DNA from: a virus
DNA length: 38,805 nucleotides
Reading direction: 5' to 3' (one strand)
UHGV virus genome: UHGV-0123934
Part shown: one piece after another, positions 1 to 24,687 of the stretch
Numbering within the stretch: the first letter of the stretch is position 1
Layout: every line of letters begins with the position of its first letter
Translations under genes and position numbers: made by a program
The notes under the pieces: model-generated
Database searches by the model: none
What the model was told of the DNA's origin: nothing
Seen by the model: the letters and a program-made list of their open reading frames with translations, nothing else

Positions 1-633
1 ATGCTGTCCATCGGATATTCGCAGATACTTATGAATCCGTTGATCGACACGCCTTTCATAAACTTATTATTTACGCTTCGTCCTTGTCGTCGAGAAGAAT
101 TGGAATCGGCCTACGACGATTTTCTCCGCACGGTCATCGAAGTCTGCGACAATACGGTCGATTATAAACTGCTTTTTCGGATCTTGACGCATACGCAAGT
201 ACGGTTAGAGATGTTGTATCCGTCGCGTACACGGGTTAAATCGAATGCTGGCGAGGTATCTGCTTCCCGTTATATCGCAGCCGCCAAACGAATCGTCGAA
301 TCGGAGTTGAGCCTTTTGAATGAACGGGTCGTGCATCCGTCGTTGTTTCAGCCGCCCCGTAAAAACGATATTCCGGATTTGTTTTGGAGTTCGGAGTTCA
401 CGAAGCGGGATTTGGTAGAGCTGCTCTCTGCTTTGGAGTATCTCGGTCCGATTTTGAATGCCGTTGGCAAATACGCTCCGTTTTCGGTGTTGGTGGCATT
501 CGCCGAAAAGACGCTCAATGTTTCCTTGCCGAATGCCTATAAAATCCGCGAGGAGGTGTTGAACCGCAAGACGAAGAGTACGGATTTCTTGGAACGGCTG
601 ATCGAGGCACTGATCGAGAAGAGTACGAAATGA
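1..633 (+). CDS. hypothetical protein (possibly 5' truncated at window edge)
   Basis: 210-aa ORF starting at position 1; protein-like composition, no motif I can name; co-oriented with downstream HTH and replication genes. Confidence 0.35.
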   Translation: MLSIGYSQILMNPLIDTPFINLLFTLRPCRREELESAYDDFLRTVIEVCDNTVDYKLLFRILTHTQVRLEMLYPSRTRVKSNAGEVSASRYIAAAKRIVESELSLLNERVVHPSLFQPPRKNDIPDLFWSSEFTKRDLVELLSALEYLGPILNAVGKYAPFSVLVAFAEKTLNVSLPNAYKIREEVLNRKTKSTDFLERLIEALIEKSTK

Positions 634-3210: not shown

Positions 3211-3510
3211 ATGCCGCATCTCAAACGCACTGTACGCCGTCCGTGGCTGCCGGAGCATAAGCCGCAATCGGGACGCCGCCACGCCAACACGGAGTTCTAC
3301 CGGTCTGCCGCATGGCGGAAACTGCGCCTCGTCAAGTTGGAGCAGCAGCCTCTGTGCGAGGAGTGCCTGAAACACGACCGGCATACTCCGGCGCAGATGG
3401 TCGACCACATCGTCCCGATCAATCGGGGCGGGGCGCCGCTCGACTTGCAGAACCTGCAATCCCTCTGCAACTCCTGCCACAACCGCAAGAGCGCTCGGGA
3501 GCGAAGATAA
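3211..3510 (+). CDS. HNH endonuclease (phage packaging-associated type)
   Basis: CEEC...HTPAQMVDHIVPINRGG...NLQSLCNSCHNRK: Cys pairs plus catalytic His/Asn spacing typical of HNH; about 99 aa as in terminase-associated HNH proteins. Confidence 0.85.
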   Translation: MPHLKRTVRRPWLPEHKPQSGRRHANTEFYRSAAWRKLRLVKLEQQPLCEECLKHDRHTPAQMVDHIVPINRGGAPLDLQNLQSLCNSCHNRKSARERR

Positions 3511-3643: not shown

Positions 3644-4579
3644 ATGCGAACGACCCTTAACCTGAATGAAATCATCTCCGAATGGATTTCGGAGTGCGAC
3701 ATACTCCCCGCCACCAAACGGGACTACCGGCGCAAGGTCGCGCTGTGGTTCCGATGGCTGTCGGCGCATGATGTCGATACCCGTTCGCCGGAGCGTCGAC
3801 ACGTCTTGGAGTACAAACAGCAGTTGCAAGCCGAAGGCAAGAGCGTCTATACGGTGAACAGCCTCGTTACGATCCTCAAACTGTTTTACGGCTTCTGCGA
3901 GCGACAGGGCTACTACGGCAATATCGCTGCCGGGATCCGCAGCAGCAAACGCCATACGGAGTACAGCAAACTGCCGCTGACGGCGGAGCAGGCGTTCCGG
4001 CTGTTGGTCAGCATCGATCCCTCGACCGCCATCGGGCGCCGCGACCGACTGATGATTTCGCTGATGCTCTTCAACGGGCTTCGCACCTGCGAGGCGGAGC
4101 GTATCGACATCGGCGACTTCGCCGAGCGCGAGGGGCAACCGATCCTCCGCATTCAGCGCAAGGGACGCACGGACAAGAACGAGATCGTCGTGCTGCATCC
4201 CGACACGGTCGCGTGGCTGGAGGAGTATATCGCCGGCAGGGACTTCGACAGCGACACTCCGCTCTTCGTATCCCACAAGGCGCAATGCGACAACCGGCTC
4301 GTGCGGCAGACGATCGGGCGGATCATCAAACAACGCCTTGCCCGTATCGGCATCTCGCATCCGAAGATCTCGGCGCATTCGCTGCGGCACACGTTCGGGG
4401 CGCTGATGGTCGAAGAGGGGATAGACATCGAGACGATCAAGGATATGATGGGGCACTCCGATACGAAGACCACGCGCATCTATATCGAAATGGCGCAGCA
4501 GCGACGACTGCTCCATCACTCGCCGTCGATGACCATAGGCGATGCGATACTGAAAAACGGCGATAAACCGAAACGATGA
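3644..4579 (+). CDS. tyrosine site-specific recombinase (XerC/XerD-like integrase)
   Basis: C-terminal catalytic signature HSLRHTFGALMVEEGIDIETIKDMMGHSDTKTTRIYIE (H-x-x-R ... Y), upstream Arg in LFNGLRTCE, SAM-like N-terminal domain. Confidence 0.85.
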   Translation: MRTTLNLNEIISEWISECDILPATKRDYRRKVALWFRWLSAHDVDTRSPERRHVLEYKQQLQAEGKSVYTVNSLVTILKLFYGFCERQGYYGNIAAGIRSSKRHTEYSKLPLTAEQAFRLLVSIDPSTAIGRRDRLMISLMLFNGLRTCEAERIDIGDFAEREGQPILRIQRKGRTDKNEIVVLHPDTVAWLEEYIAGRDFDSDTPLFVSHKAQCDNRLVRQTIGRIIKQRLARIGISHPKISAHSLRHTFGALMVEEGIDIETIKDMMGHSDTKTTRIYIEMAQQRRLLHHSPSMTIGDAILKNGDKPKR

Positions 4580-4846
4580 TTGAAGTACAGTGAATTAATG
4601 AATTACGCTATATGTTTAACGGACAAAACATTGCGATTTTTCGTAACTCGCTGAAACCCGACAGTGGGTATCAAAGAGTTGCGTGATCGAGGTACGCTCC
4701 CGACCGAAGACGGGGAGGGGTCGAAAATCCTTCGTGCCCTGCGGAAAGCAATCGCGCCCCAAGTCTTCTGTACGCGCGTGCAGAATCGAGGGAAACGGAA
4801 AATCCGTATTGCGAGAATAAAATGCTCTTTGAAATATCGAACGGAA

Positions 4847-5734
4847 TCAATACTCGATTTTGAAATAGTCGAGTACTGCCTTGTAGTTGTCTTGCGCCGT
4901 CAGGCAGGTGTCTGTCAGATACTCCCGAACTTCCGACCAGCGTTGCAGACCGCGATAGTAGAACATCTTCAGGTCGTCGGTGATGATGAACGGTACGATG
5001 CCGTTTGCCAGACACTCCTTGAACATCACGAGCCGCCCGACACGTCCGTTGCCGTCCTGAAATGGATGGATCGCCTCGAAGCGCTGGTGCAAATCGAGGA
5101 TATCCTCCAACGATTTCTGCCGCTTGGCATTGTATTCGGCAAGCAACGCTTTCATCTCCCGACCTACGTTCTCGGGCGCGGTCGTTTCATGGCCGCCTAC
5201 TTCGTTGGGCAGGCGTTTGTAGGTGCCGACGGCAAACCACTCCTTGCGGCTGTCCGATGTTCCCGACTTGAGTAGGGCGTGCAGCTCCTTGATAAGCGAC
5301 TCGGTCAGCCGCTCCTCGGCACGGTCGATAACGAGGTCGATACAGCGGAAGTGGTTCGTCGTTTCGATAATGTCATCTACACGGACGCTTTCGCCCTCGA
5401 TGCCGACGGTGTTCGTCTCGAAGATATAACGCGTCTGGTCGTGCGTCAGTCGGCTGCCTTCAATGTGGTTGGAGTTATAGGTCAGATCGATCTGCGTCTT
5501 GTGGTAAATGCCGCCTTTGAGCTGCATTCCCTTTTGTTCGCGCAGGGCAGCGAGCAACGGCGACAGTTTCGAACGGCGGCGTTTGCGTGCGGGCAAAGCG
5601 GCATCGGCGGGAATGTTCCATGTTTTTCCCGTGAGGAATGCGCCCTCGATTTTACCTTCGGCGCAATAGTTACGCGCCGTGCGCTCCGAAATGCCGTATT
5701 TCTCGGCGAATGCGACTACTGAAATATATTCCAT
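4847..5734 (-). CDS. Fic family protein (Fic/Doc AMPylation-type toxin) with N-terminal HTH
   Basis: Canonical Fic motif HPFQDGNGRVGR; candidate inhibitory-helix motifs SNHIEG and TVGIEG; N-terminal HTH-like FAEKYGISERTARNYCAEGKI. Confidence 0.9.
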   Translation of the reverse strand: MEYISVVAFAEKYGISERTARNYCAEGKIEGAFLTGKTWNIPADAALPARKRRRSKLSPLLAALREQKGMQLKGGIYHKTQIDLTYNSNHIEGSRLTHDQTRYIFETNTVGIEGESVRVDDIIETTNHFRCIDLVIDRAEERLTESLIKELHALLKSGTSDSRKEWFAVGTYKRLPNEVGGHETTAPENVGREMKALLAEYNAKRQKSLEDILDLHQRFEAIHPFQDGNGRVGRLVMFKECLANGIVPFIITDDLKMFYYRGLQRWSEVREYLTDTCLTAQDNYKAVLDYFKIEY

Positions 5735-5845
5735 AAACTCCGTCTATCGGCAAGTATGATTCCGATTTCGATGCCAAAGATAATAATATTTGCCGGTATC
5801 GGCAAATTATAAATAGAACTTTTATTAGATAATAAATGTGCTGAA

Positions 5846-6325
5846 ATGACGAAAGGTCGTAAGAAATTGCCGGATGAATTGAAATCCCTGCGCGGAACGG
5901 ACCAGCCGTGCCGCATGGCCGGCAACGCTGCTTCGACGGGAACCGCCGTCGCGGCATTGCCGCGCTCCGGACTGAAAGGTACAGCGAAGAAGGTGTTCGA
6001 GGTCGTGGCGACGGAGCTGATCCACAAATGCCTGTTGGATGTCGTCGGGGTGGATCTGGTAGTCGCCTATGCTCGCGAGATGGGGTTGTACCACGATATG
6101 ATGCGCGAAACCGAAAAAGAGGGATACACCATCGAAGTGATGACGAAACACGGTACAACGACGGTCGTCAACCCCAAACGCAAAGTCGCCGAATCAGCAC
6201 TCGCCAATGCCAAGGCGTTGGCTGCCGAGTTCGGGTTGACGCCTGCCAGTCGCAGCCGCGTGGCGGCTTTGCTTTCGGATAATACCCCGAAAGACGACTT
6301 CGCCGAGTTCGAGGAGATAAAATAG
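5846..6325 (+). CDS. terS: phage terminase small subunit (P27-family-like)
   Basis: 159-aa protein immediately upstream of the large terminase; conserved-looking stretches AKKVFEVVATEL and GLTPASRSRV. Confidence 0.75.
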   Translation: MTKGRKKLPDELKSLRGTDQPCRMAGNAASTGTAVAALPRSGLKGTAKKVFEVVATELIHKCLLDVVGVDLVVAYAREMGLYHDMMRETEKEGYTIEVMTKHGTTTVVNPKRKVAESALANAKALAAEFGLTPASRSRVAALLSDNTPKDDFAEFEEIK

Positions 6326-6335: not shown

Positions 6336-8003
6336 ATGGCTGCCGTTAAGAAATATCCCGCCGAACTTTATGCCGAGCAGGTGCGCTCCGGCGAGATTCT
6401 CGTCTGCGAGTATGTCCGACTCGCTGTCAGACGCTACTACACCGACCTCGACCGTGCGCTCGACAAGGGATGGTATTTCGATAAGAAAGCCGCTCTGCGT
6501 GCGATCCACTTCATCGAAAAACTCAAACATACCAAAGGCGAGTGGGCGGGACAGCGGTTCCGACTGGAGCCGTGGCAGCAGTTCGTGCTGTGGAATATCT
6601 TCGGGTGGAAGAATGCCGACGGCTCGCGCCGCTTCCGATACGCTTATATCGAGATCGCCCGCAAGAACGGCAAGACTGCGTTGTCCGCCGGTGTCGGGTT
6701 GTATATGCTCTTCGCCGACGGCGAGAGCCGCCCGGAGGTTTACTCGGCCGCGACGGTCAAGGATCAGGCGAAGATATGCTTTTCGGATGCTGTGGAGATC
6801 GTCAAGGCGACCGATCTGAAAAACTACCTCACGCCATACCGAAACTCGATCGTCTATGAACTCAAAGGCGGTACGATGAAACCTCTCTCGTCGGATTACG
6901 GCACGCACGACGGTCTGAATCCGAGTTGCGGCATCATCGACGAGTTTCACGCCCATAAGGACAGCGGAATGTTCGACGTCATCAAGTCGGCTTTCGGTGC
7001 ACGGCGGCAGCCGCTCATGTTCATCATCACGACAGCCGGTTTCAACAAGTCGGGAGCCTGCTATGCCTATCGGGAAAATGTCATCAAAGTGCTGCGCGGC
7101 GTGAACGAGGACGATTCATTGTTCGGCATCATCTACACGCTCGACGATAAGTCGGAGTGGGACGACCCGAAGATGTGGATCAAGGCCAATCCCAACCTCG
7201 GCGTGAGTTTGAGTGCCGACTACCTCGCCGACCAAGTGAAGGACGCCAAGAACCGCCCCGAAGCCGTCCGCAACGTGATGACGAAGAACGTCGATCTATG
7301 GGTCGATGCCGGACGGACGTGGATTTTGGACGATGTATGGATGAAGTGCATCGGTACGATCGATCCCGCCGACCTGAAAGGCTGCGCCTGCTGGGGCGGT
7401 TTGGACCTCTCGAACGTGTCGGATATTACGGCTTACGTGCTGCTCTTCCACGAGAACGACCGTTTCCAGTTGCTGCCGCACTTTTGGGTTCCCGAAGAGA
7501 AGATGCTGGAGAAGATCCGCAAAGAGAATATCAACTACGACAAGTGGGTGGCGGAGGGCTATGTAACCGTTACGCCGGGCAATGTCATCGATTACGACTT
7601 CGTCAAGGCGGATATCCTGCGCATCGTGGCCGATTACGACCTGCGGACATCGGCTTACGACCGTTGGAACTCTTCGCAGACGATCATCGACTTGCAGAAC
7701 GAGGGGATGGAGTGCAACCCCTTCGGACAGGGCTATGGCTCGATGTCGGCGCCGACCAAGGAGTTCGAGAAACTGGTGCTGACCGGGAAGATCGAGCACT
7801 TCGGCAATCCGGTCCTGCGGTGGATGCTCGCATCGACGCTCGTCAAGACCGATCCTGCGGGCAATATCAAACCCGATAAGGAGAAATCGACGCAGAAGAT
7901 CGACGGCATCGTAGCCTCGATCATGGCACTCGGAGAGTGGATGACCGCACAGGCCGACGACGAGAGCAACCCGTATGAAAACAGAGGATTATTGACTTTA
8001 TAA
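6336..8003 (+). CDS. terL: phage terminase large subunit
   Basis: 555-aa protein with ATPase-like IEIARKNGKTALSAG and nuclease-domain acidic residues; position between TerS and portal. Confidence 0.9.
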   Translation: MAAVKKYPAELYAEQVRSGEILVCEYVRLAVRRYYTDLDRALDKGWYFDKKAALRAIHFIEKLKHTKGEWAGQRFRLEPWQQFVLWNIFGWKNADGSRRFRYAYIEIARKNGKTALSAGVGLYMLFADGESRPEVYSAATVKDQAKICFSDAVEIVKATDLKNYLTPYRNSIVYELKGGTMKPLSSDYGTHDGLNPSCGIIDEFHAHKDSGMFDVIKSAFGARRQPLMFIITTAGFNKSGACYAYRENVIKVLRGVNEDDSLFGIIYTLDDKSEWDDPKMWIKANPNLGVSLSADYLADQVKDAKNRPEAVRNVMTKNVDLWVDAGRTWILDDVWMKCIGTIDPADLKGCACWGGLDLSNVSDITAYVLLFHENDRFQLLPHFWVPEEKMLEKIRKENINYDKWVAEGYVTVTPGNVIDYDFVKADILRIVADYDLRTSAYDRWNSSQTIIDLQNEGMECNPFGQGYGSMSAPTKEFEKLVLTGKIEHFGNPVLRWMLASTLVKTDPAGNIKPDKEKSTQKIDGIVASIMALGEWMTAQADDESNPYENRGLLTL

Positions 8004-8015: not shown

Positions 8016-8318
8016 ATGAGCAGCAGAAAAATGAACCGAAAACAATACAAGCGTTATCACTCGCCGGTCATCGCCGCCGAGCGCGAGAAAGTCGAAGCGG
8101 AACTGTCGGCGATGAATCCGCTCGAACCCGAAGTGCGGCATTTCCTCTCATTCGAGGGCTTCGCGGAACTATATCTCCGTATGCGTGACCTCTATCCGAC
8201 GCAGTTGGAGGCTTACGAGCGGTTGGAGGATTTCTACATCACCATCACCGGCAAGCGCAGATACTCCGAATTCAGTTCATTCAGGAGGGTGTTGAATAGA
8301 ACGAGAAATATACGTTGA
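8016..8318 (+). CDS. hypothetical protein
   Basis: 100-aa ORF directly after terL, still GC-rich backbone; no motif. Confidence 0.4.
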   Translation: MSSRKMNRKQYKRYHSPVIAAEREKVEAELSAMNPLEPEVRHFLSFEGFAELYLRMRDLYPTQLEAYERLEDFYITITGKRRYSEFSSFRRVLNRTRNIR

Positions 8319-8479
8319 TATATTACATTGGTTATCAATATGAAAACGGAGTGCGATTAACTTTCTATTAAAAAATATGTAAAAAATTATGTAGAGAACA
8401 AAAATTTACTTACCTTTGCAAAAGAAACCCACGAGTGCGAGTCGTGGGCAATGTAAAAACATATAAATACGTTTTTCTA

Positions 8480-9112
8480 ATGAAAAACTTTACAAAAGTA
8501 AGTTTATTTTCGGATTCTACAAATTCCGAGGAACAAAAAATCTATGAGTCGATGACTCGATTCGTAAGTAAAGAACTTTATTTGCTTCCTCAAATGATTG
8601 GGGATGCTTATTCTGAAACTAATGACGAATTGGGGATTCTTCCACCTCACGCAAGAAGGCGGAATAGCCGACCTGTTCGAGTAAATGAAAAGATAGCCCA
8701 GAAATGTGCTGAAATCTACCCCGAATATTTCAGAGAAGTTTCGAGTGGTAAATTTATGCTTTATGTACCGGGATTCGCTCAATTTCACATTGTGAAAACG
8801 AATAGGGGCAAATTGCCTCCCAGACGTACTCGACAAGCTCAAAATGAGGTATATCAACAGAACCTACCATTCAAAGGTTGCCCAATTTTGCATATCGGTC
8901 ATGATCATCAATATGGTCATACAAGTGTAACCTTAATGTTATATGATGCAGGACAATGCGTGTGGAGTTGTTCTTTCAGTGATATTTTGTACATCCAAAA
9001 CTCTACAGCGGAACAGACTATTTCATTGACGCAAACATATAATGATTCTAAGGAGGTTTTTGCCAAGCCAAAAGCCAATGCTCGAAAGAAGGTGACAGTA
9101 GAGGCTATTTGA
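8480..9112 (+). CDS. hypothetical protein (AT-rich island cargo; candidate effector partner of the HTH-ImmA gene)
   Basis: First ATG (8480) of ORF 8435..9112; AT-rich codon usage unlike neighbours; preceded by TAccTTTG -7-like motif (8411-8418) and a 7-bp-stem hairpin (8428-8448); 31 nt upstream of HTH-ImmA gene on same strand. Confidence 0.5.
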   Translation: MKNFTKVSLFSDSTNSEEQKIYESMTRFVSKELYLLPQMIGDAYSETNDELGILPPHARRRNSRPVRVNEKIAQKCAEIYPEYFREVSSGKFMLYVPGFAQFHIVKTNRGKLPPRRTRQAQNEVYQQNLPFKGCPILHIGHDHQYGHTSVTLMLYDAGQCVWSCSFSDILYIQNSTAEQTISLTQTYNDSKEVFAKPKANARKKVTVEAI

Positions 9113-9143
9113 TGCGGACAATTTGTGAGAGCTTAAATGATAT

Positions 9144-10250
9144 ATGAATGTTAATAACAAAATGATCACTATCGCACGAGAAGTGCGAGGAATGACTCAG
9201 ATGCAATTATCTGCGTCTATACCTAAACTATCTCAAGGAAATCTCTCAAAAATGGAAAAAGGGATTATTGGGGTTACGGAGGAAGTTATTGAGAAAATAG
9301 CCTCTGCCCTCAATTTTCCCGTTTCGTTCTTTTATGAAGAATATACATTCCCTCCATTTAGCAATGTATATTACCGAAAGCTCATTACGGCTTCTGTCAA
9401 AAAGATGTCTCAATTGGAGGCTATCTTTAAAACAACTATGTTTGTTGTAGACAACTTGTTGGAGTCTATTGATATCCCAGAATATACCATCCCAGAGTTG
9501 GATGTTGAGAATGAATTTGCAAAAACGAATACAAACAAGACAACCCAGCGAGTTGAAGATATTGCTCGAAGAGTTCGTTTTGTATTGGGCATTCCAGATG
9601 GACCAATAACAGATATTTCGGATATTCTTGAAAAAAATGGTATTATCATTATTGAAATAAATACTGATATGGCAAAATTTTCAGGAATGTCTGCCCAAAC
9701 TCAGAATGGGGCAAAAATAATTTTCTTAAACGGAAATATGTCCAATGATCGTAAGCGATTTACCATTGCTCACGAATTAGGACATATTGTCATGCATATT
9801 CCTTTCATTGCAATATCTGAAGATAGAGATTTGGAGAATGAAGCGAATGTTTTTGCAGGCGAATTTTTAATGCCTTATAAGGATTTTCGTAAAGATGTCT
9901 CTCAATATTTATCATACAACCATTTGGATATGTTGAAGGCATATTGGAGAGCATCGAAACAGGCGATTATTCGAAAGGCATATCAAGATCAAATTATTTC
10001 TGCACAGAAATACCAATCTTTGATGGTACAAATGAGTATGAATGGGGAAAGAAAATGCGAACGCATAATTGTTGATTTCCCTGATCCTAAATTATTAAAA
10101 AAAATAATAGATGTTTTTTACGATGATTTAGGTTATACTCAAGATGACCTTACGCAAGCTATTAGTGTAAATCTTAATAGTTTGCCTTTAATGATTAATA
10201 AAAGACCTAATATGATTTTATTGAGGTCCAAGACCAGAATACAATTATAG
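9144..10250 (+). CDS. XRE-family HTH fused to ImmA/IrrE-type zinc metallopeptidase (COG2856-like)
   Basis: N-terminal HTH (MITIAREVRGMTQMQLSASIPKLSQGNLSKMEKG) and HEXXH motif in FTIAHELGHIVMH followed by E at ENEANVFAGEFLMP. Confidence 0.8.
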   Translation: MNVNNKMITIAREVRGMTQMQLSASIPKLSQGNLSKMEKGIIGVTEEVIEKIASALNFPVSFFYEEYTFPPFSNVYYRKLITASVKKMSQLEAIFKTTMFVVDNLLESIDIPEYTIPELDVENEFAKTNTNKTTQRVEDIARRVRFVLGIPDGPITDISDILEKNGIIIIEINTDMAKFSGMSAQTQNGAKIIFLNGNMSNDRKRFTIAHELGHIVMHIPFIAISEDRDLENEANVFAGEFLMPYKDFRKDVSQYLSYNHLDMLKAYWRASKQAIIRKAYQDQIISAQKYQSLMVQMSMNGERKCERIIVDFPDPKLLKKIIDVFYDDLGYTQDDLTQAISVNLNSLPLMINKRPNMILLRSKTRIQL

Positions 10251-10311
10251 TAGGGACAATATCCATTTAATATTCTTTCCACTTCATTAAGTTTGCCGCA
10301 AAGCAAGTTTG

Positions 10312-11529: not shown

Positions 11530-12157
11530 TGAAATAGAGATCCGGAGCCTTATCGGCGATCTGCATATCGAGAGCCGCGAGGAGGGAATCGTCAGTCGGA
11601 CGATCGTCGGCTATGCCGCGAAATTCGAGAGTTGGAGCGCCCCTATTATGGGGTGGTTCCGGGAGAAGATCGCGCGGGGCGCATTCGACGGGTGCGACCT
11701 GTCGGACGTCATCATGTGTTTCAACCATAACACCGATTCGATCCTCGCCCGCACGACAAGCGGGACGCTGCGATTGGAGGTGGACGACGTCGGTCTGCGC
11801 TTCGCGTTCGAGGCTCCGAATACGACTTCGGGGAGCGATATGCTGGAGTTGGTACGCCGGGGCGACGTCTCGAAATGTTCGTTTCGCTTCGGCGTCGAGC
11901 AGGACGAGTGGCAGTATGCCGACGAGCAGAACGGTCTCGCGATGGACGAGCGGACGATACTCCGGTTCTCGCGTGTGGTAGATGTGTCGCTCGTGGTATT
12001 TCCTGCCTATCCCGAAACCGAAGCCTCGGTGCGGTATCTCGAAGAGCGGAAAGCCGAGTGGTTATCATCAAATAAAACGGAAGCATCGAATCATTCTTAT
12101 AAAATAAAATCTCGAAACCGTTTGTGTGATTTTCTTAAAGTTGCAAATAGGCACTAA
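11516..12157 (+). CDS. HK97-family prohead protease; C-terminal about 30 codons AT-rich, possibly altered by the adjacent island
   Basis: VGYAAKFES, REKIARGAF, CFNHN, KCSFRFG motifs; start overlaps portal stop. Confidence 0.8.
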   Translation: MEPNNEIEIRSLIGDLHIESREEGIVSRTIVGYAAKFESWSAPIMGWFREKIARGAFDGCDLSDVIMCFNHNTDSILARTTSGTLRLEVDDVGLRFAFEAPNTTSGSDMLELVRRGDVSKCSFRFGVEQDEWQYADEQNGLAMDERTILRFSRVVDVSLVVFPAYPETEASVRYLEERKAEWLSSNKTEASNHSYKIKSRNRLCDFLKVANRH

Positions 12158-12176
12158 CCGAAATTTCCATATCTTT

Positions 12177-12206
12177 GTAACAGCCGATGATTTCATCGGC
12201 TGTTAC
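12177..12206 (+). other. perfect 14-bp inverted repeat gtaacagccgatga-tt-tcatcggctgttac (terminator or operator)
   Basis: Read directly from the sequence; lies between the prohead protease stop and the first R-M island gene. Confidence 0.5.
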
Positions 12207-12236
12207 TTGTTATACAAATTAAGTAAATAAAGCATA

Positions 12237-12815
12237 ATGAAACTACGAATTCCAAACTCGGAAGTTCAAGAACTTCTAACCGACAAGTCTTTTGAGTATC
12301 CTAAATACGCGACTCAAATTATGAACTTGGCGAATCAAAATGCACAAGGTACTCGTCCGAATATTGTAGGTCAAATGAGCGACCTGATTCAAGAATTCGG
12401 AGCGGGATCGATGATTGAATGGGATGCTTGGTATAAGAACGGTCACCCGGAAGCGATTAAGACTGCAACCGAACGAGTATATCGGATGATTGAATTATTT
12501 AAAGAGAGTATTCAGACCATCGATAAGGATATGGTCCGAAAATGGATCGAAGAGCTTGTTGTTGTCAAAACTTATTGCGGATTAAAATTCCAAGAGGCCA
12601 TTCTCCGTAAAATTGCAGAAGAAAAGCAGTCGGACTACAGATTGGCGACCCCAGAAGAAGAAGCACAAGGTATAGATGGATTCATTGGAAATTCCCCGGT
12701 TAGTATCAAGCCGATCACGTATCGGATTATGAATGAACTACCGGAGCACATCGATGTGCCGATTATTTACTATGACAAGAAGAAATCAGAAATAGTGGTT
12801 GAATATAATTTTTGA
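12237..12815 (+). CDS. putative type II restriction endonuclease (or REase subunit)
   Basis: 192-aa AT-rich ORF convergent with the DNA methyltransferase in the same island; call rests on gene context only. Confidence 0.35.
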   Translation: MKLRIPNSEVQELLTDKSFEYPKYATQIMNLANQNAQGTRPNIVGQMSDLIQEFGAGSMIEWDAWYKNGHPEAIKTATERVYRMIELFKESIQTIDKDMVRKWIEELVVVKTYCGLKFQEAILRKIAEEKQSDYRLATPEEEAQGIDGFIGNSPVSIKPITYRIMNELPEHIDVPIIYYDKKKSEIVVEYNF

Positions 12816-12819
12816 TATT

Positions 12820-13440
12820 ATGCCATATACTGGAGGACCATTGAATACATTAAATGGGAAAATGGGTATTTCTGCTCCGGAGAATAGTGTACCTGTTATG
12901 AAATTAATTCGCATACATCATCCTAAAAGTAAAGAGGAATTAGTCGAATTAATAAAATGGCATTCTGAAAACAAGTGTGAATGCGGTATTATTAGTAGAG
13001 GAACGGTTGAACAATTTGGGAAAAATTTATATGAAGCTCAAAAAGCATTTTGGGGAGAATATAAATTTTCATTAGCAATATGCATCCAATGGGAATATGA
13101 TTTATTTGTTTTACAATCATTAAAAGGTTCTTTGGTTGAAGATGCTGCTATTAGGACTTTAGAGACCCAATTAGAGCCTGAATATGCTTTTTTAGAAGCA
13201 ACCGGTTATATGGATGAAGAATTGCGAATTGATATTATTTGCAAATATAACAATAGCATTATTGCCGGCATTCAGGTCAAACCTTTAACATTTTTAATGA
13301 TGAGACGAGAAATTATTACTTATAATGCTATGGCTAATCAAAAATGGGATAAACCTGTATATTATTTATATTATGACGAAAATGAAAATTTCGTAAATAT
13401 TGAAGAAGTAAAGTCTCATTTAAAATCATCGATTCTTTAA
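12820..13440 (+). CDS. hypothetical protein, R-M island (possible second REase subunit or specificity factor)
   Basis: ATG at 12820, 5 nt after the upstream stop; AT-rich; stop overlaps the MTase stop (convergent). Confidence 0.35.
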   Translation: MPYTGGPLNTLNGKMGISAPENSVPVMKLIRIHHPKSKEELVELIKWHSENKCECGIISRGTVEQFGKNLYEAQKAFWGEYKFSLAICIQWEYDLFVLQSLKGSLVEDAAIRTLETQLEPEYAFLEATGYMDEELRIDIICKYNNSIIAGIQVKPLTFLMMRREIITYNAMANQKWDKPVYYLYYDENENFVNIEEVKSHLKSSIL

Positions 13441-14582
13441 AATGTTAATGCAATCTGCGTTCGGGAAGGAATAGAAATAATACGCTTTCTATTCCCTACT
13501 TTTATTTCAGCAGTGACCGGAATAGTGTCCGCATATTCAGCAGTAATCATGTGATTGTTCCCTCTTATTGCAGATAAATAGACGAACCGCATATCTGTTT
13601 CTTGTGAAGTCATGACCGGCATCTGGAGATGCTCGTTGAAATGTTTGATCTCTTTATTTTGCGTTCGTTGCGAAACGAATTCTTTATGTGCTGCTATTCG
13701 ATTAGCAATAACTTCGTTCATTTGGTCAACCGATGATGAATGAATATTATCGGCTATAATATCTATAAACTTATCATCAATTTCATAACCAATACTATTG
13801 CGATTGCTCATGATAGATGCAATCGTAGTTGTACCGGTTCCTAAAAAAGGATCCATTACCGTATCTCCTTGCAACGAATACATATTGATTAGACGGTATG
13901 GAACTTCCAATGGATAGGCTGCACTCCTGTCTCGACTTTCTGCTGATATTTTTTGTTTGGTACCTTTTATATTGTCCCACAAATCGGAAAACCACACATT
14001 GCGTTCCTCCCAAAAGAACGAACTCTCACGGCGTTTCTGTTTGTCTATTGCAGATTTGAATTCGCGTTTACCTCCTTTGCGAAAAATCAAAATCCATTCG
14101 TGTTCCAATGTTACATATGCTCCTGCAGGAAGCATTCCGGACCCCATAAATTTATTTGGAGCATTCGTTTGCTTCCTCCAAATAATGTTTGGAAGATTTA
14201 CATACCCGTGAGCGGTGAAATAGTTAATTATACGGGAATGATTGGAGTATAAAGCAAAATTGCCATTGAATGTTCGCGTCGCATCACCGACATTGATACA
14301 GACGATTCCACCCGGGACAAGGACACGTGTCACCTCATCCCATACTTTATCCAGCTCTTGATGCATTAATTCAAAAGCCGCATCCGGCTGGTTTTCATCA
14401 AGGGCATTTGCAATACAAGGATTTTGTTTGCTTAATATCTCATCCCACATTTGAATCATGGGATATGGCGGAGATGTAACGACTAACTCGACCGAGTTGT
14501 CATTAATTTCTTTCATCTGTTGGGCAGCCCCAGTATATATGCTATGCGTTGTCTTCATAATTTCAAAGCAAAGATAATTCAT
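13437..14582 (-). CDS. DNA methyltransferase, beta-class amino-MTase (N4-cytosine or N6-adenine)
   Basis: Motif IV TSPPY near the N-terminus and motif I DPFLGTGTT further C-terminal (IV before I = beta class). Confidence 0.85.
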   Translation of the reverse strand: MNYLCFEIMKTTHSIYTGAAQQMKEINDNSVELVVTSPPYPMIQMWDEILSKQNPCIANALDENQPDAAFELMHQELDKVWDEVTRVLVPGGIVCINVGDATRTFNGNFALYSNHSRIINYFTAHGYVNLPNIIWRKQTNAPNKFMGSGMLPAGAYVTLEHEWILIFRKGGKREFKSAIDKQKRRESSFFWEERNVWFSDLWDNIKGTKQKISAESRDRSAAYPLEVPYRLINMYSLQGDTVMDPFLGTGTTTIASIMSNRNSIGYEIDDKFIDIIADNIHSSSVDQMNEVIANRIAAHKEFVSQRTQNKEIKHFNEHLQMPVMTSQETDMRFVYLSAIRGNNHMITAEYADTIPVTAEIKVGNRKRIISIPSRTQIALTF

Positions 14583-14694
14583 TTCCTCCTATAATCCTCC
14601 ATTATTCAACTTTATTCTAAAATTGCGACAAAGTTTCCTTTTAGAGGCTGTTCGGTGGATTAAGTTTGCTCCCGAAGAATCAATAACGAGATTT

Positions 14695-17249: not shown

Positions 17250-17602
17250 TGGATTTCAAGAAACATCTGATCGCGCTTTTGGAGCGTGAGATTCCAGAAT
17301 TGGCGGATAAGATTCAAGCCGGTGCGGTCGATGCCCGGACGCCTGCGCCTTTCGCCGCGTTCTCCGTACCGGAAGAGACGCCCGTAAGGACGCTACACGG
17401 CATCGTCGGCTATCGGACGATGTTCGAGGTAGCGGTCTATGACAGCAGGTTCTCCGGTGCGGAACGCCTCAAGCATCGGGTGATCGCCGCCTTGGAGGGT
17501 GCGGAGTTCGACGGCAAGCGCAGCCGCTTCGTCTCCTCGGCGGCGGAATACTATGCAGACTACGACGTGCACGGTGCGACGATGACATTCAGAATTGTTT
17601 AA
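17246..17602 (+). CDS. putative tail completion/terminator protein
   Basis: 118-aa ORF overlapping upstream stop (ATGA), last gene of the head-tail joining block; no motif. Confidence 0.4.
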   Translation: MMDFKKHLIALLEREIPELADKIQAGAVDARTPAPFAAFSVPEETPVRTLHGIVGYRTMFEVAVYDSRFSGAERLKHRVIAALEGAEFDGKRSRFVSSAAEYYADYDVHGATMTFRIV

Positions 17603-18242
17603 CCCAATCCGTAAAATCGAGTTTTATGAGTTGCCAGATTTTATTTTCAAGACAAACAGGGTCGGGATCACCATCCGCTCTCGTAAAATCGGTCAATCCC
17701 GCAAGGCATTCTTCGCGCGATGCTCCGTAGGGATATCGTGCTGCGTATAAAGCGAGCAGCTGCTCGATAGAATAGGCATTATGAAGAAGATGCAAATCCC
17801 AAAAGTCCTTTTTACGGCCGCCGCGGGCGATAACATCCATCTTCATCGCAACGATGTCGTCTACGGACGCCATACGGATCGTATCGTGCTGCTCTGCCGG
17901 GCGGATGAAGTCATCCGTATAGAACAGGTCGAGTTTTACGGACTTTTCCCGGTTCTGTCCGATGATATATGAGGCCCCGAAGCCGACGATTTCTCCGCAA
18001 TCACCCTGACAATAAGGAAACTCTTTGCGCAGAATATCCTGCAATTTATGGAAATCCAAAGATCTATACTCGGCATCGGTAAATAGATCTATATCGTCGG
18101 ACATACGATGTCCATAGCGCAAACTGAGCGAGGTGCCGCCGACAAGGCGGAACGGGGCGAATGCTTCGAGAGTCATCAGATGTTCGAGTGACGACCGCAG
18201 AATGGGTTTGACAGTATGGTATTGCAACGCTTTATGCTTCAT
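17589..18242 (-). CDS. nucleotidyltransferase, AbiEii/AbiGii toxin-like (DUF1814-like)
   Basis: N-terminal FRLVGGTSLSLRYGHRMSDDIDLF (GGT...S.DIDL polymerase-beta-like NTase signature); start overlaps upstream partner. Confidence 0.75.
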   Translation of the reverse strand: MKHKALQYHTVKPILRSSLEHLMTLEAFAPFRLVGGTSLSLRYGHRMSDDIDLFTDAEYRSLDFHKLQDILRKEFPYCQGDCGEIVGFGASYIIGQNREKSVKLDLFYTDDFIRPAEQHDTIRMASVDDIVAMKMDVIARGGRKKDFWDLHLLHNAYSIEQLLALYAARYPYGASREECLAGLTDFTRADGDPDPVCLENKIWQLIKLDFTDWVKQF

Positions 18243-18753
18243 AATCGAGATATTGCTTCAGGTTCTTTTTGATAACCGATGAGAATGGAGATGACGGCGA
18301 TAATCCGATCTTGCTTAAAATGGTTTCTCGACCATAAAAACGGATGGTTTCGATGATCTCTTCTTCATTGCCTCGCTCCATTACGCGATTGATAACGTAA
18401 CTGCTATGGGCATCCCAATTGATATTGTCGAACGATGTGTCCCAAAACAGGGAAGGTCGGTATTTTTCGAGATCCGGATGGTGAGCGGACGAAAGTTTTC
18501 GCTTCTCCTGCACAATGTCGTAGTGAACCTGCAGGGTCATGAGTATGCCTTCCTCTAATGCGAGCGCATGTTCGATTCGCAACGACAGCGGAATATTCAT
18601 CGACCTGCGGCCGCGAATAATGGCGCTTATGGTTTGGGGGTGCTCACCGATAGATTTAGCGAACCGACCGCTTTTCAGGTTTCGATTATTCAGCTCGCGT
18701 TGTAAGAAGAGTCCCGGATGTACTCCTTTCAGTATGTCGATTAAATTGTTCAT
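18232..18753 (-). CDS. HigA-like HTH antitoxin/regulator with C-terminal extension
   Basis: VHPGLFLQREL ... ISAIIRGRRSMNIPLSLRIEHALALEEGILMTLQVHYDI resembles the HigA/VapI antidote HTH; 11-nt overlap with the NTase gene; ATG at 18753 (track start 18762 is TTG). Confidence 0.6.
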   Translation of the reverse strand: MNNLIDILKGVHPGLFLQRELNNRNLKSGRFAKSIGEHPQTISAIIRGRRSMNIPLSLRIEHALALEEGILMTLQVHYDIVQEKRKLSSAHHPDLEKYRPSLFWDTSFDNINWDAHSSYVINRVMERGNEEEIIETIRFYGRETILSKIGLSPSSPFSSVIKKNLKQYLDYEA

Positions 18754-18817
18754 ACAACGCAAAAGTAAACATATTTGTTTATTTTAACAAATTTTATGCC
18801 GAAATATTTTTACGCTT

Positions 18818-21240: not shown

Positions 21241-22017
21241 GTGGGTACATTCGCTTACGATAACCCCGCTTACATCGCTTCGTGCTCGTTCGGCAAGGAT
21301 TCGATCGCTACGATCCTCCTTGCCCTCGAATATGGCGAGCCGCTCGATGCCGCTGTCTTTTCGGAGGTGATGTTCGACCATCGGCGCAATATCAGCGGCG
21401 AGATGCCCGAACACATCGAGTGGATCTATTCGACGGCGATTCCGCGTCTTGCCGCCTTGGGCGTACGGGTCGATGTCGTCCGTTCGGAGAAAGACTATCT
21501 TACGTTATTCCATACGGTCATAGGGAGCAGTACGCATAAGGGTATGCTGCGCGGCTGGCTCATCGGCGGCAAGTGCTGCGCCAATCGCGACCTCAAAATC
21601 CGGCCTATACATCGCTATTATGCCCGTTATCGAGAGCAAGGCATCGTGCAGTACGTCGGCATCGCGGCCGACGAACCGAGACGCCTCGCGCGGATGCAGG
21701 ACAAAGGGTATAACCGTAAAACGAGTCTGCTCGCCAAGTACGGGTACACCGAGGCGGACGCCCGACGCAAGTGCGAAGAATACGGTCTGCTGTCGCCTCT
21801 CTACCGCACCTCGCATCGGGGCGGTTGCTGGTTCTGCCCCAACTGTCGCATTCCGGTCTTCGCCGAACTGCGCCGCCGCCATCCTGAATTGTGGCGTGAA
21901 CTGCAACTGCTTTCGAAGGTCGGAAATAAGTCCTCCGAAGGTTTCAAATACGGGCTGACTTTCGAGGAGGTCGAGCGGCGGATGGATCTCTTCGAACACT
22001 CACCGACGCCATTCTAA
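21241..22017 (+). CDS. PP-loop ATPase, PAPS reductase/QueC-like family protein
   Basis: PP-loop SFGKDS near the N-terminus, C-terminal Cys cluster GGCWFCPNC; start uncertain (GTG 21241 is the first start after the dam stop). Confidence 0.65.
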   Translation: MGTFAYDNPAYIASCSFGKDSIATILLALEYGEPLDAAVFSEVMFDHRRNISGEMPEHIEWIYSTAIPRLAALGVRVDVVRSEKDYLTLFHTVIGSSTHKGMLRGWLIGGKCCANRDLKIRPIHRYYARYREQGIVQYVGIAADEPRRLARMQDKGYNRKTSLLAKYGYTEADARRKCEEYGLLSPLYRTSHRGGCWFCPNCRIPVFAELRRRHPELWRELQLLSKVGNKSSEGFKYGLTFEEVERRMDLFEHSPTPF

Positions 22018-22020
22018 ACA

Positions 22021-22105
22021 ACTGAAAATAAATACGATAATAGTCGCCGAATAACTTGCGTGTTCCGAATAACGATGTTATGTTTGTCATGCAATAAACA
22101 ACTAA
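22021..22105 (+). promoter_or_regulatory. Promoter/leader repeat copy 1 (-33 TTG 22056-22058, -7 TAtgTTTG 22079-22086)
   Basis: Conserved about 85-bp element also at 22497, 23311, 23957 and 24588; motif spacing 20 nt fits the Bacteroidota sigma promoter pattern. Confidence 0.6.
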
Positions 22106-22118
22106 AATAGAGCGAATT

Positions 22119-22422
22119 ATGAAAAAGACAGTCATCGTGAAAGGCGAGCGTCGCAAGGTAGAATTCGAGTATCGAGTAATCGATAAATTGGTTAGTTGCC
22201 AAAAAGCAAACGATGGGATAAGCAGGGGGATGGCTTCCGGTCGAAACCTATTACCACGAAGCCGTTGCCATTATCGACGGTGTAGAATATCCGAGCGTTC
22301 GACGCTGGCATACCAATGGCGGCAGGTATTCGGAACAGTTCTTTTACAACGGACATTTCTATGATTCGTATAAGAAAATGATCGAGCGCATTCTCGAATC
22401 GGCAGACGAAAGTAACTCTTGA
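22119..22422 (+). pseudogene. small gene apparently frameshifted at a G5 run (or a sequencing indel)
   Basis: Frame 0 ORF 22119..22364 loses protein-like character after the G5 run at 22225-22229; the +1 frame continues as a convincing sequence (WLPVETYYHEAVAIIDGVEYPSVRRWHTNGGRYSEQFFYNGHFYDSYKKMIERILESADESNS) to a stop at 22420-22422. Confidence 0.45.
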
Positions 22423-22444
22423 ACCTCGATGGAAGCAGATGGAA

Positions 22445-22475
22445 AAACAGGCTCCGTACGGAGCCTGTTTCGATC
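22445..22475 (+). terminator. putative intrinsic terminator
   Basis: Perfect 10-bp stem aacaggctcc/ggagcctgtt with gtac loop, followed by tttcg. Confidence 0.5.
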
Positions 22476-22496
22476 TTTCGCTGTAAGCGTAAATAA

Positions 22497-22580
22497 CTGA
22501 AAATAAATATGATAATAGTTACCGGATAACTTGTGTGTTCCGAATAACGATGTTATGTTTGCAGTACGATAAACAACTGA
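22497..22580 (+). promoter_or_regulatory. Promoter/leader repeat copy 2 (-7 TAtgTTTG 22554-22561)
   Basis: Near-identical to copy 1. Confidence 0.6.
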
Positions 22581-22606
22581 ATAATAGACGATTAAAACAC
22601 CCGAAC

Positions 22607-23029
22607 ATGACAAGTGCACAGGCAAAACAGATCGCATCGAACTATATGCGGCAGCAGAGCGATTATGTATTTTCGGCGGTAACGGTTAAAAGCCTCGCTC
22701 CGGCGAACGGACCAGTCAAGGTGTGGCTCACCACCGAAGACGACTACGGGGACGAACTGATCGTCGAGGTCGAGATGGACCCGCAGTCGAATGAGATCCG
22801 CTGGAAGAAGATCTGCAACACGGGACGCCTATCCGAATATCTGAAGCCGGCTACTCGGATCGATAAACTTTCGGCGGGGCAGCGCTTCCGGCTGCAAGGC
22901 GACTGCGTGGTTTACGAGTTCGTGGACAATGTAAAGGACCGCAGCAATATTCCCTATATCATCCGACGGGCAGACCGATCCGGTTGCGTATCGAGAGTCG
23001 GATGGCAGGAAGTTTTTCCTATCGAGTAA
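22607..23029 (+). CDS. hypothetical small protein
   Basis: ATG 22607 downstream of promoter copy 2 (ORF track start 22535 lies inside the promoter repeat). Confidence 0.5.
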   Translation: MTSAQAKQIASNYMRQQSDYVFSAVTVKSLAPANGPVKVWLTTEDDYGDELIVEVEMDPQSNEIRWKKICNTGRLSEYLKPATRIDKLSAGQRFRLQGDCVVYEFVDNVKDRSNIPYIIRRADRSGCVSRVGWQEVFPIE

Positions 23030-23081
23030 CCGATAACCGCGCACCTTGCCGAAAGGCAGGTGCGCATAAAACGATACGACG

Positions 23082-23312
23082 ATGAAACTCCGCCGAACGA
23101 AAACCGGAACTTACACGATTGCTGGTATTACCGCAACTCAATATCGCACCCTTGCGGCAGTGCTTATGACCGCCGATGAGCGTTGCTTCGACGAACAGGA
23201 CGAGGACGGCAACTATTACAGCAACGACGATTTCGTCTGCTCGCTCGATGGCGATGAACGGGTGGCTTTGCGACAGGTGTGCGACGCACTTCGGCAACGT
23301 GTAAAATATTGA
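23082..23312 (+). CDS. hypothetical small acidic protein
   Basis: 76-aa ORF; preceded by hairpin with GAAA loop (23037-23065). Confidence 0.4.
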   Translation: MKLRRTKTGTYTIAGITATQYRTLAAVLMTADERCFDEQDEDGNYYSNDDFVCSLDGDERVALRQVCDALRQRVKY

Positions 23313-23390
23313 AAATAAATGCGATAATAATTAATGGAAAACTTGCGTGTCCCGAATTATGATGCCATCTTTGCAGTGCAATAAACAACT
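23311..23390 (+). promoter_or_regulatory. Promoter/leader repeat copy 3 (degenerate -7)
   Basis: Shares aacttgcgtgt and gcagtgcaataaacaact cores with the other copies. Confidence 0.5.
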
Positions 23391-23405
23391 AATATAGAGC
23401 GCATT

Positions 23406-23738
23406 ATGAGTACAAGAGCAAGAATCGGCGTAAGACTTCCCGACGGAAAAATCAAAAGCATTCATATATGGCGGGACGGACATCCCGATACGTTGGGCGA
23501 AACATTGTCAGCGCACTACAACACATTGGAAACGGCAATGGCACTGGTCGAACGAGGCAACATAATCGATGTGGAAGCACGTCTCGAAGAGTGCCGGTTC
23601 GAGAAATCGAATGAACGGTACGATACCGAGCCTCGGATTTATGAATCGGTTGCCGCCTATGAACGAGAAATCGAGGAGGATATATGTTACAAATATCTCT
23701 ATCGGGACGGCAAGTGGGAATACCGGGCGGTCGATTAG
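23406..23738 (+). CDS. hypothetical small protein
   Basis: 110-aa ORF with ATG start downstream of promoter copy 3. Confidence 0.5.
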   Translation: MSTRARIGVRLPDGKIKSIHIWRDGHPDTLGETLSAHYNTLETAMALVERGNIIDVEARLEECRFEKSNERYDTEPRIYESVAAYEREIEEDICYKYLYRDGKWEYRAVD

Positions 23739-23772
23739 TAACCGACTTCCGATCGTAAGGAGCGAATGCTCC

Positions 23773-23802
23773 GAGCCTCCGACGGGAGGCTTTCTCTCGT
23801 TT
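23773..23802 (+). terminator. putative intrinsic terminator
   Basis: Stem agcctcc/ggaggct, loop gacg, then T-rich ttctctcgttt. Confidence 0.5.
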
Positions 23803-23821
23803 CATTCAGTTGTTTATTGCG

Positions 23822-23856
23822 ACCGGAGCCGTGCATCGTGTACGACTCCGGTTTTC
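23822..23856 (+). terminator. putative intrinsic terminator preceded by inverted leader motif cagttgtttattgc (23807-23820)
   Basis: Stem accggag/ctccggt followed by tttt; paralogous to the element at 25080-25133. Confidence 0.5.
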
Positions 23857-24672: not shown

Positions 24673-24687
24673 AAAAAAGAGCGAATT

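Follow-up and report, generated by a model that had tools for sequence, protein, structure and literature searches.

Results

Gene order at the HNH-terminase locus

The sequence studied here is the 38,805-nucleotide (nt) virus genome UHGV-0123934, referred to as the window over its full length, and its genes of interest are a tyrosine recombinase of 311 amino acids (aa), Int311, and a Fic gene that faces it. On the plus strand, an HNH endonuclease of the terminase-associated type (3211-3510; Pfam HNH, E = 6.6e-15; PHROG HNH endonuclease, 5e-28) is followed by Int311 (3644-4579; Pfam Phage_integrase PF00589, 6.8e-28, and Phage_int_SAM_1 PF02899, 1.2e-06) and a non-coding gap (4580-4846). A gene for a 295-aa Fic protein then lies on the minus strand, convergent to Int311 (4847-5734; Pfam Fic, 3.2e-18), and the plus strand resumes with the small terminase TerS of the P27/Terminase_4 family (5846-6325; Pfam, 2e-17) and TerL, with its ATPase and nuclease domains (6336-8003). 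The original prediction had described a 311-aa recombinase and a convergent Fic gene between HNH and TerS, and this description was confirmed, since the open reading frames (ORFs) are in place and their Pfam matches lie far beyond chance.

Relatives' loci, cited below by L numbers, came from IMG/VR and GTDB species genomes, were fetched with TerL and recombinase queries and were compared by tblastn of the window proteins; a megablast search with 25 kb of the window gave no match among INPHARED phages. The recurrent order in these relatives is DnaC, an ORF, HNH, recombinase, a variable slot, TerS, TerL, an ORF, another variable slot and portal. We counted 93 clade loci with TerL identity of at least 75% and enough upstream sequence (some contigs are included twice, and the numbers therefore refer to loci). 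The recombinase lies upstream of TerS on the same strand in 92 of them, 87 of which have HNH, recombinase and TerS in that order, and the gene order is kept down to 51% Int311 identity. More distant phages, with TerL identity of 43-49%, have HNH adjoining the terminase with no recombinase. Since the recombinase is found in nearly the whole clade and is missing from those distant phages, it was gained at the base of the clade and has been kept since. The view that HNH and terminase had been separated by a non-native wedge was therefore reversed for the recombinase: HNH-integrase-terminase is the conserved order, and the attachment (att) sites map far from it, as described below. Between the HNH stop and the recombinase start, at least 10 relatives (e.g. 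L067, L076, L124 and L066) have 0-20 nt, a spacing that suggests co-expression, and in many relatives the two genes abut or overlap. In the literature, we found no account of a recombinase placed between HNH and terminase.

The same order, with or without cargo before TerS, is unbroken in integrated prophages on chromosomal contigs of 0.15-3.3 Mb, with examples in L095 (3.3 Mb), L121 (1.03 Mb), L126 (282 kb) and L109 (156 kb). This bears on the 268-bp gap downstream of Int311, which had been put forward as a candidate attP or recombination site. An attP in the gap would split HNH-Int311-TerS upon integration, and the contiguity of HNH, Int311, Fic (where present) and TerS in integrated copies therefore means that the gap is not attP. 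A recombination site for Int311 somewhere in 4580-4846 is possible.

The sole clade member without Int311 is L043/L205 (IMGVR_UViG_3300021254_003159; L205:12078-14200). At least 14 kb of unrelated DNA lies upstream of its break in synteny, encoding a 452-aa integrase and a 348-aa Fic protein and carrying GGTTACG arm-like repeats; the break may mark the insertion of another integrative element into the phage, or a junction left by recombination.

Int311 is a conserved second recombinase

Int311 has the 'simple' two-domain organization, an N-terminal SAM-like core-binding domain and a catalytic domain, without an arm-binding domain. PHROG labels it as an integrase. Its best match in the PDB is XerD (1a0p, 1.7e-22), with further matches to archaeal XerA (4a8e, 7.9e-22), XerH and IntI4; Cre is absent from the PDB sequence matches at E≤1e-3. 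A domain search had been suggested as the way to place the protein in an integrase or a Xer/invertase clade, and it gave affinities that are Xer-like and scores that stay under the Xer equivalog and invertase cut-offs. On the NCBIfam models, Int311 scored 138.4 bits for XerA (cut-off 220), 137 for XerD (329.6), 113.8 for XerC (335), 59 for the integron integrase TIGR02249 (265, and over residues 219-293 only) and 34-37 for the invertase models (221-222). All of these are far below cut-off, and Int311 belongs to none of those families.

With a limit of E≤1e-10, the protein search returned at least 591 homologues of Int311; the best 120 of them all share at least 52% identity and are annotated only as 'tyrosine-type recombinase/integrase' or 'XerD'. 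Strains of Alistipes onderdonkii and A. indistinctus and MGBC isolates are among the bacteria with orthologues. Residues R147, K173, H245, R248, H271 and the nucleophile Y280 are invariant in 66 distinct orthologues, which have a mean identity of 64% to the window protein, and the pairwise ratio of non-synonymous to synonymous substitution rates (dN/dS) against the window is 0.05-0.19, indicating purifying selection. The invariant catalytic residues and the low dN/dS together argue that Int311 is a maintained and catalytically competent enzyme. Xer/Cre-like and encoded in the core genome of the phage clade, Int311 is a conserved second recombinase; the lysogeny integrase is another enzyme.

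The lysogeny integrase and the ends of the prophage

The original prediction had considered the recombinase as the possible lysogeny integrase, and this proved wrong, as a separate integrase of 437 aa, Int437, was found at the prophage end beside a tRNA-Asp gene, with a 15-nt repeat marking the far end. Int437 is an arm-binding enzyme of the Bacteroidetes type, with Arm-DNA-bind_5, SAM_5 and Phage_integrase domains. The right prophage end was read from contigs that encode the 954-aa protein at the end of the window, obtained by exact-protein look-up, and the layout was the same in five contigs: to the right of window position 38805 come an ORF6N protein, Int437 and an intact tRNA-Asp, about 2.3 kb from the window end (tRNA at L161:7639-7713 and Int437 at 8017-9330), and beyond the tRNA stand host genes for an RsmD-like methyltransferase, a PIF1 helicase and MutS. 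The left end was read on L168, a contig that encodes the exact DnaC protein of the window. At 5.64 kb to the left of window position 1, this contig has the native sequence found downstream of tRNA-Asp and then the last ~16 nt of the tRNA (GGCGGTGCGTAGGGGA; partial 3' end at L168:64-79), past which it diverges into element DNA; ARAGORN finds no tRNA there.

The 15-nt att core, GCGGTGCGTAGGGGA, is the 3' end of the intact tRNA-Asp beside Int437 and is present as a direct repeat at the far prophage end. The predicted attP would join the sequence past L168:79 to the side of Int437 that faces the tRNA. The comparison with the prophage ends that had been expected to reveal core repeats in the gap thus placed them at the tRNA-Asp 3' end, ~9.3 kb and ~36.5 kb from Int311. 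With left and right ends located, the prophage measures ~46.7 kb. The window is the central ~38.8 kb of this Alistipes/Rikenellaceae prophage at the 3' end of a tRNA-Asp gene, and the whole reads, from the left, attL, a cargo arm, an RteC-like regulator, RepO/DnaC replication genes, HNH, Int311, the conserved non-coding region and the cargo slot, followed by TerS-TerL-portal-head-tail, ORF6N, Int437 and attR/tRNA-Asp. Relatives that carry a ~50%-identical allele of the large integrase sit at tRNA-Lys, so that integrase allele and target switch together, the pattern expected of a functional integrase and its target. From these features, Int437 is predicted to perform both integration at tRNA-Asp and excision.

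Two other candidates for the left boundary were rejected. Window position ~28, to the left of which two groups of relatives diverge, is not the prophage end: attL lies another 5.64 kb to the left, and what differs between the groups is the variable cargo arm. No 9-mer is common to the region around position ~28 and the Int437/tRNA side. A shared 12-mer, GCGATTGCGATG, was discarded as att core since it lies within native acetyltransferase coding sequence. For the tRNA-Lys form of the prophage, no repeat of its end was found in the available left flanks, which are probably too short.

The non-coding region between Int311 and TerS

We compared 77 distinct Int311-TerS intergenic regions, 50 of which are 450 nt or shorter, and aligned those with an empty slot. 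The first feature is an 18-6-18 imperfect palindrome at 4642-4683, CGTAACTCGCTGAAACCC GACAGT GGGTATCAAAGAGTTGCG, first recognised as I4 in the relative L118; the arms of the palindrome belong to the clade-wide motif AACTCTTTGATA / TATCAAAGAGTT. The 12-mer AACTCTTTGATA and its inverted partner are found 50-120 nt past the Int311 stop, and the 12-mer is letter-perfect in most relatives, even at 51-59% Int311 identity. The dyad is laid out as (+)N12(-) in the window subgroup versus (-)N33(+) in most other relatives, and the 18-6-18 palindrome is limited to the window subgroup. The palindrome at 4642-4683 is a candidate protein-binding site for Int311 or for TerS, in the latter case cosB-like. Binding of TerS at lambda cosB is a precedent for TerS as a repeat-binding protein.

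The second feature, recovered by the empty-gap alignment and nhmmer, is a conserved non-coding element of ~80 nt on the plus strand (4711-4791). The nhmmer profile gave 111 matches, 78 of them unique, with one copy per phage and the plus strand in all 111; the match in the window covers 4711-4789 (E = 2.8e-20). The element has the invariant blocks GGGG, TTCCTTC, AATCGC and CGTGCA and a near-palindrome, TTCTGTACGCGCGTGCAGAA, at 4766-4785, and in relatives whose slot is empty, 11-27 nt separate its end from the TerS ATG. No covarying RNA structure and no Rfam family was found for it; a structured RNA was therefore rejected, and the element is a DNA-level signal. Taken together, the non-coding features between Int311 and TerS fit a candidate late-promoter, control or cos region with protein-binding repeats. 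The contigs of relatives have no common start point that could mark cos, the gap 4580-4846 has no flanking inverted repeats, no conserved dif-like 11-6-11 site was found, and no lox-like 13-8-13 site is conserved in the clade.

The Fic cassette and the slot upstream of TerS

Fic occupies a ~1.05-kb cassette (4792-5844, minus strand) between the ~80-nt element and the TerS ATG. Of the relatives whose slot is empty, L109 is the closest; in it only 19 nt lie between the counterparts of window positions 4791 and 5845, and therefore the cassette is a clean 1.05-kb insertion of a single gene. Fic is present in 12 of the 77 distinct Int311-TerS regions. The suggestion that Fic is a moron was borne out by this clean and infrequent insertion, and the suggestion that recombinase and Fic form one integrative cassette was contradicted, as nearly all relatives keep the recombinase without Fic. 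The same slot may be empty or hold a DUF4143 AAA ATPase (PADLOC PDC-S01, 2.7e-94), a YhcG/DUF1016 nuclease of the PD-(D/E)xK type (PADLOC PDC-S02, 3.5e-142), a 374-aa ATPase_2 protein, a YoeB-like toxin, unknown genes, or Fic and ATPase_2 in tandem. By its context, Fic is independent exchangeable cargo in a hotspot of candidate defence genes directly upstream of TerS.

The ATPase_2 and YhcG cassettes and the Fic cassette of L030 are flanked by inverted repeats of 19-49 nt with the core TCTTTGA(A/T)ATAT, of which the window has a single copy (4826-4837), where the Fic cassette has its edge. In a scan of IMG/VR, the exact flank repeat was not found outside this clade. Most cargo is inserted past the ~80-nt element and not at the AACTCTTTGATA motif. 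Between the tandem Fic and ATPase_2 genes of L118 (L118:8060-8156) lie a 52-nt copy (81% identity) of the 5' end of a foreign TerS and a degenerate copy of the ~80-nt element, an arrangement that points to the gain of a cassette by unequal or homologous exchange between two phages.

The Fic protein carries the motif HPFQDGNGRVGR at residues 223-234, which fits the HxFx(D/E)GNGRxxR active-site pattern. The nearest solved structures are the C. difficile Fic protein, CdFic (4x2e, 4.7e-29), and the B. thetaiotaomicron protein BtFic (3cuc, 1.7e-14). Two strings had been named as candidate inhibitory motifs and both exist. SNHIEG (residues 88-93) fits the (S/T)xxxE(G/N) pattern, lies N-terminal to the Fic core in the same chain, aligns with SNKIEG of CdFic and is invariant in orthologues. 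TVGIEG (residues 109-114) is not conserved and reads TIGVAD in L030. On this alignment, SNHIEG alone of the two candidates is the real inhibitory motif. The N-terminal helix-turn-helix (HTH) also attributed to the protein is present as an HTH_17 match, with an E-value of 0.0023 and a score of 18.6 bits that is under the 27-bit cut-off. No antitoxin gene was found in the cassette (4792-5844), where the other ORFs of at least 50 aa are antisense or out-of-frame overlaps of Fic. The alignment of SNHIEG to the intramolecular motif of CdFic and the lack of an antitoxin gene indicate a probable class II, autoinhibited Fic AMP-transferase rather than one half of a toxin-antitoxin pair.

In PADLOC, the protein matches PDC-S04 at 5.3e-112 (profile positions 5-239 of 244) and SoFic at 7.4e-22 over part of its length. 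SoFic is reported, in one account (PMC12249575), to work by AMPylation-based abortive infection. We infer that Fic is a prophage-borne abortive-infection or defence gene, predicted to AMPylate a target once its inhibitory helix is released. Upstream of Fic there is a 20-bp palindrome, ATTTGCCGGTATCGGCAAAT, at 5788-5807, a possible operator for the Fic HTH. Fic cassettes of 77% identity have TTGCCGATACCGGCAA at the same position, with the palindrome kept and its centre altered, which suggests that Fic probably represses itself through its HTH at this palindrome.

Other features of the window and its relatives

PHROG and Pfam scans of the plus strand identified the RteC-like regulator, a RepO-like initiator, a DnaC-like loader, HNH, the recombinase, TerS and TerL; after TerL the portal, prohead protease, major capsid and major tail genes; and further right a DNA methyltransferase, a PAPS-reductase-like gene, five small genes and an alcohol dehydrogenase (ADH). 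A tail module on the minus strand closes the window, with the 954-aa structural protein, the tape measure and proteins of 772 and 233 aa. An exact-protein look-up of the ORF at 35144-35755 gave no match, probably owing to a miscalled start codon. The RteC-like regulator (31-633, plus strand; PF09357 RteC on the called gene) is the first gene past the variable left cargo arm. Window position 1 carries an ATG that lies within the 3' end of the upstream acetyltransferase gene and is probably not the start of the RteC-like gene; in relatives the acetyltransferase ORF is closed by the TGA of 32-34, and the sequence common to all of them starts at about position 28, just before the ATG at 31.

The 5.6-kb cargo arm to the left carries an ArsR-type HTH gene, DsbD_2, thioredoxin, two ArsP permeases and a hexapeptide acetyltransferase, and in other relatives its place is taken by flavodoxin, AraC, CMD and hydrolase genes. 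In the tRNA-Lys form of the phage (L018:1-2961), a reverse transcriptase (RVT_1, 4e-14) and a 522-aa multi-HTH protein lie to the left of the RteC-like gene, a region that may be retron, diversity-generating retroelement or Abi-type cargo. The 1.03-Mb contig L121, from a Bacteroidales isolate, holds a prophage remnant (L121:11889-12699), with a deletion that runs from just past the small ORF downstream of TerL to tRNA-Asp and leaves the left arm with Int311 and Fic.

Besides the slot upstream of TerS, the late genes are broken up by four more islands of defence-type cargo, and the GC content of three of these islands is clearly low. The first (8016-10280) has a 225-aa ORF and an HTH-IrrE/M78 protein at 9144-10250 (PADLOC RmrA, 6e-58). 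The second (12059-14621), between the prohead protease and the major capsid, has two MjaI-like restriction endonucleases and an N6/N4 methylase (12237-14582). The third (17603-18815) has an AbiEii-like protein and a 176-aa partner (the pair at 17589-18762), and the fourth (30288-32780), inside the tail module, has a SIR2-STAND (nSTAND5) protein.

Compared with most relatives, the window has its whole tail module (26240-38805, minus strand, 12.6 kb) in inverted orientation, with the 954-aa protein and the 233-aa DUF285 protein at its two ends and the tape measure between them. In the majority form the module follows on the plus strand straight after window position 25122 and ends against an integrase and tRNA-Lys. 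Both orientations occur among phages with TerL 95-97% identical to that of the window, and were compared in L176, L177, L181 and L201 versus L161-L165, L175 and L188. The breakpoints are exactly the first start codon and the last stop codon, with different and unrelated flanks, and no inverted repeats or shared motifs were found at them. The ADH gene (25176-26216) and ORF6N are confined to the tail-module form seen in the window.

At 22006-24677 there are five direct repeats of 104 nt, with 62-85% identity to a reference copy, and every one of them runs up to the ATG of a small gene. Because a Bacteroidetes-type TAtgTTTG -7 box is present in the repeat, it is a repeated promoter and leader; as recombination sites, these repeats were rejected. 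Whole units are lost or shuffled in the arrays of relatives.

Discussion

The observed layout of the prophage, together with the readings of Int437 and Fic given above, forms an explanation that we consider likely. The role of Int311 is a separate question, to which our answer is tentative: it may well be wrong, even if no other single proposal fares better in our estimate. In this tentative reading, Int311 would be a clade-wide and probably late-expressed recombinase tied to the packaging region, engaged either in Cre-like handling of multimers beside cos or in integron-like servicing of the adjacent slot. As to mechanism, we regard action on phage DNA near cos, in the handling of multimers, as possible and no stronger than that. 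Int311 would most likely act on phage DNA rather than the chromosome of the host, using a simple site within the conserved Int311-TerS region, for which the AACTCTTTGATA dyad at 4642-4683 is the candidate. Its action would be timed with HNH and terminase activity or cos packaging, and it would interconvert, form or resolve multimeric replicative forms of the genome, a role similar to that of Cre/loxP or Xer/dif.

Several observations weigh against this account or parts of it. No recombination product of Int311 was observed, and a cos phage that packages from rolling-circle concatemers has no obvious need of a resolvase. The geometry of the dyad varies between subgroups and fits a regulator or TerS (cosB-like) site at least as well as the core site of a recombinase. 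In L043/L205, synteny ends ~70 nt before the place where the Int311 stop would be, beside another integrase. With respect to the ends of the prophage, attL was read on L168 and attR on L161; both encode proteins identical to those of the window, and no single molecule spans both. With respect to Fic, its score on the NCBIfam SoFic equivalog is 28.6 against a cut-off of 550 bits, far below it, and the PDC systems, including PDC-S04, are candidates predicted by 'guilt by embedding' (bioRxiv 10.1101/2024.01.29.577857).

The known systems to which the locus can be compared resemble it in part. Cre/loxP of phage P1 is a phage-encoded, non-integrative and simple tyrosine recombinase system that acts in cyclisation and dimer resolution. 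Int311 is like Cre in being phage-borne, in having two domains without arm-binding, in being separate from chromosomal integration and in the position of its gene near the packaging start. P1 differs in being a plasmid prophage with pac headful packaging and terminal redundancy, whereas the present phage integrates at a tRNA gene and has an HNH/P27-type (cos-like) terminase; moreover, the clade has no conserved lox-like site and Cre is not among the PDB matches reported above. XerC, XerD and XerA are the best sequence relatives of Int311 and share its SAM-like and catalytic architecture, yet Int311 stays under their 220-335-bit equivalog cut-offs and, unlike a chromosomal housekeeping gene, belongs to the phage core and lies in a packaging neighbourhood. 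On the matter of a dif-like site, the window subgroup has its 18-6-18 imperfect palindrome, and other subgroups have the same 12-mer as (-)N33(+). IntDOT/NBU-type integrases of Bacteroidetes resemble Int437, in the Arm-DNA-bind_5, SAM_5 and catalytic architecture as well as in the tRNA neighbour and the 15-nt core repeat; with Int311, which has no arm-binding domain, they share only catalytic-domain similarity.

For Fic, the closest likeness is with the defence hotspots ('morons') of P2/P4-type prophages, in which, as here, a temperate phage has at a fixed position a variable slot that takes a single gene, and defence-type genes alternate in it. SoFic differs, since it matches the Fic of the window only distantly and in part, the window protein carries an N-terminal HTH and its closest solved relative is the C. 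difficile Fic. Class I Fic/Doc toxin-antitoxin systems also differ, as the window Fic has no separate adjacent antitoxin gene.

Among the other explanations of Int311, the one that survives best is that it performs no recombination and serves as a DNA-binding regulator or packaging accessory at cos or the late promoter, or is a selfish passenger. The position of the gene beside HNH, often translationally coupled to it, and next to the conserved region upstream of TerS agrees with such a role, as does a motif geometry like that of regulator or cosB-type sites. We think it unlikely nevertheless, as the six catalytic residues, including the Tyr nucleophile, do not vary in 66 orthologues that average 64% identity, and the low dN/dS argues for maintained catalysis.

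That Int311 is specifically an integron-like cassette recombinase, which creates or services the adjacent defence slot and swaps single-gene cassettes in it, appears slightly less probable still. The slot right downstream does hold alternative single-gene cassettes, in one case two in tandem (L118), three kinds of cassette have inverted repeat flanks, and the core of these repeats resembles AACTCTTTGATA. On the other hand, four other cargo hotspots of the same phage have no recombinase, the TerS fragment and degenerate element in the L118 tandem speak for unequal or homologous phage exchange, and most cargo sits past the ~80-nt element, away from the motif. The flanks are inverted and not direct, which makes the cassettes unfit for excision as circles, and there is no direct-orientation array of the attC type as in integrons. 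The integron-integrase model is matched over a short C-terminal stretch and not at full length as in IntI, and the exact cassette repeat is confined to this clade in IMG/VR.

A DNA invertase, which had also been proposed for the recombinase, is improbable to a further degree. Such an enzyme could flip a promoter segment upstream of TerS, in the manner of the fim switch or of the Bacteroides Tsr proteins, or the 12.6-kb tail module. The layout of recombinase gene, short conserved intergenic region and operon is indeed like fimE-fimS-fimA, and the tail module is found in both orientations among close phages. Against the promoter switch, the ~80-nt element is on a single strand in every one of its matches (assemblies show the majority orientation only) and the gap is not flanked by inverted repeats. 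Against the tail-module switch, the breakpoints coincide with start and stop codons, have unrelated flanks and share no inverted repeats, and ADH and ORF6N occur in one form only. The invertase models were also matched far below cut-off.

The reading of Int311 as the lysogeny integrase or a second, alternative one, with the downstream gap as its attP, draws on its tyrosine recombinase family and PHROG label, the conserved non-coding DNA directly downstream and the break in L043/L205, and is the least probable of all, being already largely refuted by the unbroken Int311-TerS order in prophages on large chromosomal contigs, the distant prophage ends and tRNA-Asp core beside a different, arm-binding integrase, the lack of an arm-binding domain in Int311, and the position of the L205 break within coding sequence, beside the GGTTACG repeats of the other integrase.

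The locus is largely ordinary, in that prophage defence hotspots and Fic defence candidates are of known kinds, and the conserved second recombinase is the part of modest interest. The phage family is abundant in Alistipes/Rikenellaceae of the human and animal gut, and the exact tail protein of the window is indexed in 205 blocks of the assembly collection. Automated annotation of Int311 as 'integrase' or 'XerD' could mislead calls of prophage boundaries or lifestyle, because the real integrase and att sites are elsewhere. The slot is a clean natural case of a fixed-position hotspot of defence genes directly upstream of the small terminase, and the co-occurrence of Fic (PDC-S04), PDC-S01 and PDC-S02 there lends support to those defence candidates. 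If the Cre-like version of the tentative role of Int311 is true, a theta-replicating temperate phage could in this way feed its cos terminase, and either version would be a role of a tyrosine recombinase not described for integrating cos-type phages. For the biology of Bacteroidales phages, this second recombinase, with its strict conservation, its intact catalytic residues and its place next to the packaging site, is a tractable question.

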